Source: Deinococcales bacterium (lineage in GTDB: Bacteria; Deinococcota; Deinococci; Deinococcales; JAAFIG01). From it: a stretch of DNA of 35,160 bases. The notes below the pieces were generated by a model. It was given only the letters and a program-made list of their open reading frames with translations, was not told the origin of the DNA and searched no databases. The stretch lies in assembly GCA_031414595.1 (NCBI GenBank), contig JANNVX010000056.1:1-35160 (forward strand), written 5' to 3'. Shown in pieces: positions 2,350-6,246 of the stretch (its first letter is position 1; each line of letters opens with the position of its first letter). The position numbers and the translations under genes are program-made.

Positions 2350-2754
2350 ATGAATCAGATTCTTAATATCCAATTAATTTCAGGTGATCAAATTTTATTA
2401 AGACTCGAGTATCCAACGACTATTTCTCGAGAGCTATTACTTGAGCGTATCCCGCTTCTTTTCGGAGAAGTTAAAGGAGTAAATACTATGAAAGTACCAA
2501 CTGGTGTCTCAAAATCATATATGCAACTTGCTCGTTTTCTTTTACAACAAGAAAATAATGAAATAAAAATTACTTTTTCGCAGCTTGAAAAGGAGTGGAA
2601 TCAACCGTTGCCACGTTCTGCTCGAGTGCATAGAGCTTGGTGGGGAAACACGGAAAATCCGACACATGTCCATGCGAGTTCTTGGATGCTAACTGGTTGG
2701 AAAGTAGAAACAATTGATCTCGAGAATGAGGTTGTCGAATTTATTAGGAACTAA
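2350..2754 (+). CDS. Small hypothetical protein, antisense to the tRNA array; C-terminal domain with TF..LE.....LP.SA..H..WW.N motif (DUF7662-like)
   Basis: 134 aa, AT-rich ORF; TATCAT 6 nt before ATG; an alternative start at MKVPTG has a GGAG RBS. Confidence 0.7.
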   Translation: MNQILNIQLISGDQILLRLEYPTTISRELLLERIPLLFGEVKGVNTMKVPTGVSKSYMQLARFLLQQENNEIKITFSQLEKEWNQPLPRSARVHRAWWGNTENPTHVHASSWMLTGWKVETIDLENEVVEFIRN

Positions 2755-3122: not shown

Positions 3123-3422
3123 TTAAATGCTGACTGGTGCATAAATGCGAACTTCTGTTTCGAGGCGTGAGGCTAATTTTCGGCGTTCGATTTCAAGGTC
3201 AAAATTGGTTTGTAAGTTCAACCAGAAACGTTCTGAATTGCCAAAGAATCGTGCAAGTCGCAAGGCGGTTTCGGTACTAATGCCGCGTTTGCCAAGCACA
3301 ATTTCGTTAATACGACGGGCTGGCACACTGATATTTTGTGCAAGTCGGTATTGGCTAAGTCCAAGTGGCTCGAGAAATTCGTACTGTAGTATTTCGCCCG
3401 GGTGAACTGGTTCAAGTTTCAT
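3123..3422 (-). CDS. higA: HigA/VapI-family antitoxin (HTH XRE), no adjacent toxin
   Basis: HPGEIL..EFL.PLGLSQY.LA....V...RINEIV.GKR.IS..TALRL.RFFG.S..FWLNLQ signature. Confidence 0.9.
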   Translation of the reverse strand: MKLEPVHPGEILQYEFLEPLGLSQYRLAQNISVPARRINEIVLGKRGISTETALRLARFFGNSERFWLNLQTNFDLEIERRKLASRLETEVRIYAPVSI

Positions 3423-4511: not shown

Positions 4512-4586
4512 TGGCTGACTCGGTAGGGATCGAACCTACGACAACCTGATTAACAGTCAGGCACTCTACCTCTGAGTCACGAGTCA
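4512..4586 (-). tRNA. tRNA-Asn(GTT)
   Basis: CCTGA-CTGTTAA-TCAGG anticodon arm, G73, CCA. Confidence 0.92.
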
Positions 4587-4591
4587 ATAAA

Positions 4592-4673
4592 TGGATACGG
4601 AAGGATTTGAACCTCCATTGTCTTTTAGACGCTTGGGCTACAACCAAGTGCAATACCGTTCTGCCACATACCC
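4592..4673 (-). tRNA. tRNA-Tyr(GTA), no encoded CCA
   Basis: CTTGG-TTGTAGC-CCAAG anticodon arm, variable arm GTCT-AAA-AGAC, A73. Confidence 0.87.
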
Positions 4674-4707
4674 ATGTGGATGACTGGTATGTCATCCGTA
4701 AAGCTCG

Positions 4708-4909
4708 AGGTGTACGCCCCAAGCGTGTATCGTCTTTAAGAATAATCGTGATTACACCGTACAGTGCAACAGCATTCACGTTTTCTAAGGGAGAAAAATT
4801 TGGCATTCGAGTTGTCAAGGAATTCACTCAGAGACGAGTTCTAGTCGTCGCAAGCAGTTTGGGTGTTGGTGCTTCTCGAGGACACGAATTCTCGAGTTGG
4901 CGTACACCT
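4708..4909 (-). ncRNA. Unknown ~200-nt multi-branched structured RNA
   Basis: Perfect 11-bp closing stem AGGTGTACGCC/GGCGTACACCT enclosing several hairpins; fills the gap between tRNA-His and tRNA-Tyr. Confidence 0.55.
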
Positions 4910-4910
4910 G

Positions 4911-4986
4911 TGGGTTCATCGTCGGGAATCGCACCCGAGTTTCTAGGGTCACAACCTAGCGTCTTGTCTATTGGACGACAACGAAC
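4911..4986 (-). tRNA. tRNA-His(GTG), first gene of the array
   Basis: G-1:C73 pair, CTAGG-TTGTGAC-CCTAG anticodon arm, GTGC-type T loop, CCA. Confidence 0.88.
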
Positions 4987-5012
4987 ACAGTTTTTGGTTT
5001 GTTGCGGGGTAC

Positions 5013-5049
5013 AAAAAATTTGAGCCTATCCATTGCGGGTAGGCTCAAA
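5013..5049 (-). terminator. Intrinsic terminator/attenuator upstream of the tRNA array
   Basis: TTTGAGCCTACCC-GCAAT-GGATAGGCTCAAA followed by TTTTTT on the minus strand. Confidence 0.75.
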
Positions 5050-5068
5050 AGAGTTTGCCTGTTCCGCC

Positions 5069-5215
5069 TTACCTGATTTGATTTTCCAAAATACTCGAGA
5101 ATCTACGACCTTGCCATGTCCCTAAACCTAAATCTGAATTATGTTTCAGATTGGCACAATCGCTTGCCCGCATCGGGCGTGGTGCGTATTGTTTTGTGGG
5201 GTGAGTAAAGTTCAT
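5069..5215 (-). CDS. Putative 48-aa leader peptide (MNFTHPTKQYAPRPMRASDCANLKHNSDLGLGTWQGRRFSSILENQIR)
   Basis: Not in the ORF track; translated by hand. GGAGA RBS before ATG; stop ~20 nt before the terminator hairpin. Confidence 0.55.
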   Translation of the reverse strand: MNFTHPTKQYAPRPMRASDCANLKHNSDLGLGTWQGRRFSSILENQIR

Positions 5216-5273
5216 ATATTTCTCCGTTTGAGGTTTCTAGTCTCGAGGGTGAGGTGTTGTTTCCTCGAGCAGC

Positions 5274-5303
5274 ATAGTACCTACTGCATTCAAGTCTTGT
5301 CAT
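5274..5303 (-). promoter_or_regulatory. Putative sigma70 promoter of the leader/tRNA array
   Basis: ATGACA-18 nt-TACTAT on the minus strand, ~60 nt upstream of the leader ATG. Confidence 0.4.
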
Positions 5304-5510
5304 GCGTAGATGTGCTTAGTGTGGTACTAAGCCATTTGACGCGTGAGGGCTGCTCCCAAAAACCAATCCACCTGTCTATTTTGACATCTCCCATGCCTAT
5401 CTTGACCTCACAGCAGCACCTGTCTTGACCACATACGCGCACCTATCGGGCGTGGTCGCTTCGGGCTTGGGTCGCTAAAAGCAGAGAATTTCGGTCTTTC
5501 TCACCGAAAC

Positions 5511-5539
5511 AAAAAGACGAAGCCTAAGCCTCGTCTTTT
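5511..5539 (-). terminator. Terminator after rplA
   Basis: AAAAGACGA...TCGTCTTTT inverted repeat with a T-tract, 18 nt past the rplA stop. Confidence 0.7.
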
Positions 5540-5556
5540 ACTATCTATTTTAAATT

Positions 5557-6246
5557 TTAGCGCAAGCCAGCCGTGGTCACTTTGACACTTGGTCCCATCG
5601 TGGTGGTCAAGTACAAACTCTTGACAAACACGCCTTTGGCTGCGCCAGGCTTGGCTGCCTCGAGTGCCACTTGAAAAGCCTTGAGGTTTTCCTCGAGCTT
5701 TGCCGCGTCAAACGATGCCTTACCAATTGGAGCGTGAACCACACCAGTCTTGTCGTTGCGGAATTCGATTTGACCGGCTTTGAGGCTTTTGACCAAATCG
5801 CCAATGTTCAAGCCAACTGTGCCGCTTTTTGGGTTTGGCAACAAACCACGAGGTCCAAGAATACGACCCAGTTTAGAACCAATGGCTGCCATCATGTCTG
5901 GGGTAGCAACCACCGCATCAAAGTCCAACCAACCATCAGCAATTTTAGCGATTAACTCGTCGCCGCCCACAAAATCTGCGCCAGCGCCTTCGGCGGCTGG
6001 AATACCATCGCCTTTGGTCAATGCCAGAACACGAACAGTGCGACCCGTACCATGTGGTAGGGCAACCGTGCCACGCACATTCTGGTCGGACTTACGTGGG
6101 TCAATACCCAAGCGGGCATGGACTTCAACGGTTTCGTCAAACTTGGCACTGGCAAGGGTTTTAACAAGGGTAGTGGCTTCGGTAGCATCGTAGTTTTTGC
6201 TCGAGTCCACTTTGGCGGTCAATAATTTATAACGCTTGCCGCTCAT
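5557..6246 (-). CDS. rplA: 50S ribosomal protein L1 (true start MSGKRY at 6246)
   Basis: [36 protein letters not shown] and TTMGP motifs; ATGA overlap with the rplK stop. Confidence 0.98.

Follow-up and report, generated by a model that had tools for sequence, protein, structure and literature searches.

How might a bacterium that already carries tRNA genes for every amino acid control a second, complete set? The question is raised by a 35,160-nucleotide stretch of DNA from a Deinococcales bacterium (assembly GCA_031414595.1, contig JANNVX010000056.1; hereafter the window, its genome being G000), in which 28 tRNA genes are packed into ~4.85 kb and headed by tRNA-His. In front of this array, and read with it on the minus strand, lies a short unit composed of a promoter-like site, a 48-codon open reading frame (ORF) and an intrinsic terminator. 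Comparison of this unit among related genomes leads us to propose that it is probably a ribosome-mediated, leader-ORF transcription attenuator of the spare tRNA array. The sequence just after the leader stop codon is able to pair with the terminator to a degree that is exceptional when set against ordinary terminators in the same genome.

The array is a spare tRNA set

The first gene of the array, tRNA-His (GTG), occupies positions 4914-4985 on the minus strand (Rfam RF00005, 47 bits). A further 27 genes identified with ARAGORN follow towards the contig end (144-4674, minus strand) and specify Tyr, Asn, Asp, Arg (three genes), Pro, Ala, Val, Ile, Met, Phe, Gln, Glu, Lys, Thr, Gly (two), Leu (four), Cys, Ser (three) and Trp, so that with tRNA-His the array spans all 20 amino acids. 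ARAGORN reports 68 tRNAs in the 4.49-Mb assembly, and the 41 that lie outside the array also span all 20 amino acids, including a His-GTG on another contig. The array is therefore a supernumerary complete tRNA set, for which an OFF default makes sense. It fits the definition of an L-array, at least 20 densely packed tRNA genes added to the housekeeping set, given in PMC8421152; the same source lists Deinococcus-Thermus among the phyla with only short accretion-type arrays. ARAGORN misses the array tRNA-His in G000 and in a relative, G001, and calls its orthologues in nine of 11 related loci scanned.

Promoter, leader, terminator and array travel together

We compared the locus across one Deinococcales family, made up of uncultured relatives of Deinococcus and represented by 19 species genomes in five genera. 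The array-type tRNA-His is present in 14 of these genomes, in four genera, and in all 14 the order of promoter, ORF, hairpin and tRNA-His is kept; the five genomes with no match to it are 57-91% complete. The order of genes His-Tyr-Asn-Asp-Arg... is common to the array across the family. An exact 28-nt pattern from tRNA-His, scanned against 185,579 species genomes, gave 13 loci, all in Deinococcales metagenome-assembled genomes and none outside this family, and two exact-pattern scans of metagenome contigs gave no match.

In the window, the original prediction for this locus, which had been made from the sequence of the window alone, placed a promoter at 5274-5303, a 48-codon ORF with a GGAGA ribosome-binding site and a 13-bp terminator with a U-tract ending ~27 nt before tRNA-His. 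All three are present on the minus strand. The promoter-like site is of the sigma-70 type (ATGACA-18 nt-TACTAT) and is followed by a 5' untranslated region (UTR; 5216-5273) with the Shine-Dalgarno (SD) sequence GGAGA at 5225-5221. The ORF runs from ATG to TAA (5215-5069; stop codon 5071-5069). The terminator (5049-5013) is a hairpin of 13 pairs including one C.A mismatch (5049-5019, -16.1 kcal/mol) followed by six T residues (5018-5013), and its T-tract ends 27 nt before tRNA-His.

The promoter match is the only one in a minus-strand scan of 4600-5800, a number no greater than chance (mean of 1.1 in shuffled sequences). Similarly, the 111-nt fold, taken alone, was unexceptional (z = -0.91). 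It is thus from conservation that these features draw their significance. A -35 element (ATGACA, ATCACA or ATGTGC), a spacer of 17-18 nt and a TAnnnT box are found in 14 of 14 genomes. Homology among the six genomes of the window's genus (g1) begins at ~5343, just upstream of the -35 box, and a AATGGCTTAG... block marks the start of homology among genomes with differing upstream context. Beyond ~5343 the DNA is unlike in four of the six g1 genomes, yet the ORF always accompanies the array. It follows that the array moves together with its promoter, leader and terminator. A promoter downstream of the hairpin had been named as one observation that would speak against control by the leader; the minus-strand scan found no promoter-like site between the terminator and 4600, and in genus g5 the distance from T-tract to tRNA-His is only about 13-15 nt.

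Sequence after the leader stop codon can pair with the terminator

A terminator hairpin of -14.2 to -23.3 kcal/mol followed by T5-T7 is present in all 14 genomes, 13-60 nt before tRNA-His, and in G007 it has undergone a compensatory A-U to U-A change. The distance from stop codon to T-tract is held at 49-54 nt in every genome, with spacer sequences that are unrelated among the four genera. We folded the leaders with the terminator 3' arm withheld, and in each of the 14 the terminator 5' arm paired with a segment starting 2-6 nt beyond the stop codon and lying 2-17 nt past it. In the window, the putative antiterminator 5' strand (GCGG..AGGC, 5067-5057, minus strand) begins 2 nt past the stop codon and pairs at -10.8 kcal/mol with a 3' strand (GCCT..CCGC, 5044-5035, minus strand) made up of part of the terminator 5' arm and the loop. 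This pairing is kept in all six g1 genomes (-8.8 to -11.4 kcal/mol). The original prediction had drawn the antiterminator slightly further upstream, between GGTAAGGC across the stop codon (5073-5066) and GCCTACC (5044-5038). That helix can form in the window (-7.8 kcal/mol) and in four of the six g1 genomes (-7.8 to -8.8 kcal/mol) but is lost in G007 and G006 (-0.6 and 0.0 kcal/mol); we therefore rejected it as the conserved antiterminator in favour of the pairing just after the stop codon, which replaces it.

To place these energies in context, we used as a control 75 terminators of the same genome that follow long ORFs, analysed in the same geometry. Joining spacer and arm yields -7.6 to -10.9 kcal/mol in the 14 leaders, compared with a mean of -1.8 kcal/mol (sd 1.8) for the control set, in which no terminator reaches -9.0 and one reaches -7.5 kcal/mol. 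All 14 leaders beat 74 of the 75 controls, and none of the 75 pairs as strongly as the G000 leader. Thus, the antiterminator potential of these leaders is exceptional compared with ordinary terminators, which speaks directly against the view that the ORF is a small gene with a terminator of its own.

We also exchanged spacers and arms between leaders. Native spacer-arm combinations average -9.4 kcal/mol, whereas cross-genus chimeras average -5.4 kcal/mol (sd 3.4, n = 130), and the native assignment ranks second of 24 permutations; g1 and g3 cross-pair through a common arm core, GAGCC, leaving about three independent classes. Dinucleotide-preserving shuffles of the spacer lend moderate support (mean z = -1.94). 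In the full leader context, pairing between arm and spacer is dominant in 13 of the 14 genomes, with mean probabilities of 0.49-0.87. We found no conserved upstream segment that would compete for this pairing (an anti-antiterminator of the 1:2 type), and for the 14 nt past the stop codon the mean probability of upstream pairing is at most 0.17 in 13 of 14 genomes.

The leader reading frame is maintained

The ORF is open in all 14 genomes, at lengths of 48-72 codons. It has undergone at least five insertion or deletion events, every one in frame, including one-codon changes and insertions of five codons in G003 and 12 codons in G014; the other two frames of the leader are interrupted by stops. 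An SD-like core of 4-5 nt precedes the ATG by 5-11 nt in each genome. The ratio of nonsynonymous to synonymous substitution rates (dN/dS) is 0.12-0.62 in g1, 0.36-1.0 in g5 and 1.29 in g3. These patterns indicate that the reading frame is under selection and that the peptide is weakly constrained. Such weak and patchy constraint on the amino acids is what would be expected if translation to a fixed stop outweighs the product.

We detected no tandem runs of regulatory codons in any of the 14 leaders, each of which uses 18-20 different amino acids. The number of distinct residues is above that of random proteome windows (P = 0.008-0.34) but not above that of random ORFs of the same composition (P = 0.04-0.69), and we therefore dropped the idea of an 'all-20-amino-acid' leader as a statistical finding. 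Folding of the six g1 leaders with alifold also revealed a hairpin within the ORF (AATCTGAA..TTCAGATT, 5152-5131, minus strand) that has a loop of variable length. G-U changes in G006 leave its stem intact, as does an insertion of 15 nt into the loop in G003. This hairpin is a possible pause site for RNA polymerase.

Proposed mechanism of attenuation

We suggest that transcription would start at the conserved promoter and that a ribosome would translate the 48-codon leader behind the polymerase. Toeprinting places the leading edge of a ribosome 15-17 nt beyond the first base of the codon in the P site; when the stop codon occupies the A site, ~10 nt past the stop are therefore covered. The stretch so covered takes in the antiterminator's outer helix together with some of its inner one. 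A ribosome that reaches the stop codon (5071-5069) in step with the polymerase would accordingly cover the antiterminator 5' strand (5067-5057), allowing the terminator (5049-5013) to fold and ending the transcript before tRNA-His (OFF). If the ribosome were late, stalled upstream or absent, the antiterminator would form first and sequester the terminator 5' arm, and the polymerase would run on into the array (ON). Past tRNA-His, a boxA-like motif and hairpin, described below, would probably render the transcription complex resistant to termination over the 27 remaining tRNA genes. What we infer from this layout is that the ORF is translated, that translation is coupled to the polymerase, that the array responds by switching ON or OFF, and that the boxA-like motif acts as outlined. 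The spare tRNAs would thus probably be switched on when ribosomes fall behind, and, as no 1:2 element is conserved, the switch should respond to how well translation proceeds in general and not to any single amino acid.

This scheme retains the central idea of the original prediction, in which the antiterminator is hidden once a ribosome has reached the stop codon and for which the open ORF, the fixed spacing and the strong antiterminator in 14 of 14 genomes speak; the exact pairs involved had to be corrected. Its ON and OFF states need one amendment: lacking an upstream anti-antiterminator, a leader that is not translated at all should also give read-through. Nor need attenuation act alone, since a palindrome at 5332-5314 leaves room for control at the promoter as well.

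Several observations weigh against attenuation as the explanation. The leader is long (48-72 codons) and has neither a run of regulatory codons nor a conserved 1:2-type element, which leaves the synchronisation of ribosome and polymerase unexplained. At -8.8 to -15.5 kcal/mol, the antiterminator falls short of the terminator in stability (-14.2 to -23.3 kcal/mol); it is also only moderately better than its shuffled counterparts (fractions per leader of 0.007-0.26), and the equilibrium fold of G011 favours another pairing. Residues M1, P14 and E44 are invariant in the 13 aligned peptides and a WQGR motif occurs in two genera, a sign that the peptide as such may matter. Regulation could also act chiefly through the conserved palindrome upstream of the -35 box. 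Finally, the 14 genomes are related and amount to 3-4 effectively independent lineages.

A stronger version of the attenuation model, which we put forward only tentatively and consider less likely than not, treats the leader as a pan-tRNA sensor. The 48-72 codons, drawing on 18-20 of the 20 amino acids, would serve as a test frame in which a shortage of, or damage to, any tRNA delays the ribosome and opens the terminator. Triggers could then include the anticodon nucleases of toxins or phage defence, starvation and ribosome-targeting drugs. In response, the complete replacement set would be turned on, with the boxA-like signal carrying transcription through the 28 genes. The locus would in that case couple tRNA supply to decoding capacity through a self-contained feedback loop, arrived at independently of the TrcR repressor of cyanobacteria.

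Alternative explanations for the leader unit

The palindrome is the basis of an alternative in which a bound regulator sets the activity of the promoter and the hairpin is a fixed, leaky damper. It consists of GCTTAGT-N5-ACTAAGC (5314-5332, minus strand), adjoins the -35 box on its upstream side and is a candidate operator or activator site that may bind a regulator. It is found in 13 of the 14 genomes (12 by motif search, with locus L002 added from the alignment) and is absent from g2; in G007 both arms have changed with symmetry kept (GCGTA..TACGC). The one long array known to us to have been studied, that of a cyanobacterium, is governed in an analogous way, by the repressor TrcR (PMC10272220). 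However, promoter-level control would leave the in-frame ORF, the fixed spacing between stop codon and terminator and the exceptional antiterminator unexplained. The promoter also lacks a TrcR-type site: for the motif TGTAGTAT, taken from PMC10272220, the window contains 11 matches with at most one mismatch, none of them in 5270-5345. A gene for a HigA-like helix-turn-helix (HTH) protein lies within the array in G000 and G001 only, and we therefore rejected it as a conserved regulator. We consider it unlikely that the promoter is the principal switch, but promoter-level control and attenuation can coexist.

The ORF could instead be an ordinary small gene, encoding a free-standing protein of 48-72 residues with its own promoter and a constitutive terminator, in which case the array would be expressed from elsewhere or by leakage. 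Gene callers predict the ORF in several assemblies, three residues are invariant, dN/dS among the closest g1 pairs is 0.12-0.37, and a terminator ~20 nt past a stop codon is normal anatomy. Yet dN/dS rises to 0.8-1.3 in g5 and g3 with the frame still open, the ORF always accompanies the array despite its differing upstream context, and neither a promoter-like site before the tRNAs nor, with the short gap in g5, much room for one is seen. The comparison with the 75 control terminators counts against this explanation too. Searches for relatives of the peptide returned no Pfam family, six small unnamed proteins by word-based protein search, and 13 matches, none of them named, in a profile search of 1.84 billion representatives. 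Ten of these 13 are 49-67 residues long, one of 85 residues contains an internal repeat and scores lowest (36 bits), and the remaining two are long proteins aligned only over short repeated stretches. An independent small gene is, in our estimation, a little less likely still than a promoter switch.

A role for the peptide would take a different form if the nascent chain, through WQGR and the glutamate near its end, reacted to a ligand or a tunnel-binding drug by stalling the ribosome at the stop codon or close to it, as in TnaC- or Erm-like arrest, so that occupancy of the stop region and not general translation speed set termination. In g1 and g5 a tryptophan precedes the stop by 14-15 residues, and in all 13 aligned peptides a glutamate precedes it by 4-5 codons, as would suit such a mechanism. 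WQGR is missing from g3 and g2, however, constraint on the peptide is weak and we identified no known arrest motif, making peptide-specific arrest improbable. Least credible is a functional non-coding RNA of ~240 nt, running from promoter to terminator with an incidental ORF, which would account for the discrete transcription unit, the conserved internal hairpin and short contigs in RNA libraries but not for the conserved SD, ATG and stop or the at least five in-frame indel events, and which has no Rfam family match.

The RNA-library contigs come from four studies and represent the leader ORF region of a relative (<95% likeness to the window). They span 5057, 5072, 5076 or 5080 to 5216 or 5230, reach 28-39 nt into a 5' UTR unlike that of the window, and none covers 4582-5051. 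They show that the sequence is present in the libraries and say nothing on transcription or transcript ends. We rejected them as evidence for termination, because with contigs an uncovered stretch proves nothing.

A boxA-like motif follows the first tRNA

If leader attenuation governs entry into the array, a second element bears on what happens thereafter. In the spacer between tRNA-His and tRNA-Tyr lies a conserved 19-nt motif or block, TTGACAACTCGA(A/G)TGCCAA (TTGACAACTCGAATGCCAA in the window, 4818-4800, minus strand), that is exact in 13 of the 14 genomes, in three genera; in g2 it is split by a repeat insertion. Directly 3' of the motif in the window is a hairpin (TTTTCT..AGAAAA, 4797-4781, minus strand). 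Of the 13 genomes in which the motif is intact, 12 have a hairpin after it, covarying and differing in sequence from genus to genus, and in G001 the fold pairs other bases. By eye, the g3 version of the block, GTTCTTTGACA, matches the boxA consensus GYTCTTTAANA (PMC5725501) at 10 of 11 positions, and those of g1 and g5 match at eight and six.

A related element occurs in the ribosomal RNA operons (rrn) of the family. We made this comparison in the complete genome G013; the rRNA genes of G000 are not assembled. Both rrn leaders of G013 contain CCTTGACAGTTCGAGTGTGAA, ~50 nt past a promoter-like site, and 16 of 20 bases agree with the array motif of the same genome. Like the boxA and nut elements of rrn operons, the array signal consists of a transcript motif followed by a hairpin (PMC5725501), but it differs from rrn boxA in lying inside a tRNA array, after the first gene, and in having a conserved block of 19 nt, longer than boxA. 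These likenesses tip us towards reading block and hairpin as a boxA- or nut-like signal for processive antitermination. If that is what they are, transcription must enter from upstream, through the leader terminator.

Two other readings of the motif were set aside. Its TTGACA could be taken for the -35 element of a second promoter, but in none of the genera is there a TAnnnT box 16-19 nt downstream, and the minus-strand scan of 4600-5800 detected no promoter at the spacer motif. Pairing of TTGGCA in the leader with the TGCCAA of the motif was dropped because only 6-7 bases pair and the match is absent in g3.

Relation to known regulatory systems

The proposed attenuator shares with those of the trp, his, leu, thr, ilv and pheA operons a promoter, an SD-led short ORF, an antiterminator that overlaps the terminator 5' arm, and the terminator itself. 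As proposed here, a ribosome at the leader stop codon also blocks the antiterminator. In amino-acid-operon attenuators such as trp the antiterminator is weaker than the terminator, and the relative stabilities of the two in the present leaders are trp-like in this respect. Unlike those systems, the regulated genes are tRNAs and not enzymes, and the leader has 48-72 codons with no cognate codon run; for want of a 1:2 element, absent translation should give the ON state and not super-attenuation.

Antibiotic-responsive upstream ORFs (uORFs) are very short and drug-specific and control a resistance protein. In the uORF attenuator of Bacillus subtilis vmlR, stalling in the uORF prevents formation of the terminator, and output follows impaired translation (PMC9226507), as would be the case here. 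The present locus has a tRNA set as its target, and we see no indication of any particular drug. Closer in phylogeny are the leader-peptide attenuators predicted in Deinococcus deserti for 14 aminoacyl-tRNA synthetase or amino-acid genes, which belong to the same bacterial order and likewise involve attenuation of genes of the translation apparatus (PMC4007540). As described in that source, the D. deserti leaders are short, one example having 10 residues, show enrichment for a single amino acid and lie for the most part on leaderless transcripts, whereas the present leader is long, is not enriched and has a 5' UTR with an SD sequence.

A counterpart in function is the trn operon of Anabaena sp. 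PCC 7120, a long supernumerary array for all 20 amino acids that normally stays silent and is turned on under translation stress (PMC8421152), the same logic that we propose here. The Anabaena operon is controlled by TrcR, a ribbon-helix-helix (RHH) repressor that binds repeats overlapping the -10 box (PMC10272220). No TrcR-type site is present at the promoter described here, and the host is a member of the Deinococcales without a Photo_RC gene (PF00124). In PMC8421152 the words 'leader', 'attenuat-' and 'terminator' are absent. Our search, which covered papers without their supplements, found no published description of a leader-peptide or uORF attenuator before tRNA genes.

In textbook accounts, tRNA genes are controlled at the promoter, by growth rate and the stringent response. 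To our knowledge, one long spare array has been studied so far, and it is governed by a protein repressor. If the present reading is correct, it would extend classical attenuation to tRNAs, with translation performance as the quantity sensed instead of a single amino acid. It would also provide a testable answer to the question of when spare tRNA arrays are used, and would connect their use with translation stress, perhaps also with phage defence and toxins that attack tRNAs. At ~300 nt, the element is small, and it is modular.

Other features of the locus

Upstream of the leader unit, the ORF list places rpmG-secE-nusG-rplK-rplA on the minus strand, followed by the rplA terminator at ~5535-5510. 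No Rfam family was found in 4986-5560, apart from a sub-threshold STnc40 match over the rplA terminator. Between this terminator and the leader unit is a dispersed repeat of ~77 nt (5476-5400), which is present in many copies in 16 of the 18 other genomes of the family. Pieces related to the repeat, flanked by a GCGAT duplication, lie within the T-loop of the array tRNA-His in three g5 genomes (L020-L022), and another piece splits the boxA-like motif in the His-Tyr spacer of G008 (L010).

The hexamer CTCGAG occurs 178 times in the window, about once per 197 nt, compared with eight occurrences expected from base composition, and is spread alike over leader, spacers and coding genes. We rejected its copies in the leader as operators, given that the hexamer is frequent also outside the array and is a genome-wide property.

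Two protein-coding ORFs are embedded in the array. One (3123-3422, minus strand) encodes the 99-residue HTH_3/HigA-like protein discussed above, and the other (2350-2754, plus strand) encodes a 134-residue DUF7662 protein on the strand opposite to the array. Towards the distal end, two tRNA-Ser(GCT) genes with equal Rfam scores of 59.3 bits (144-227 and 946-1032) enclose a segment, 348-921, with two small ORFs of 73 and 107 residues that have no family; this arrangement looks like a local duplication or insertion. Two further matches, at 233-303 and 1281-1344 on the minus strand, may be decayed tRNA-like remnants in the array: a weak additional tRNA-like one, which at 32.1 bits just exceeds the Rfam threshold, and a tmRNA-like fragment that stays below threshold (18.2 bits).

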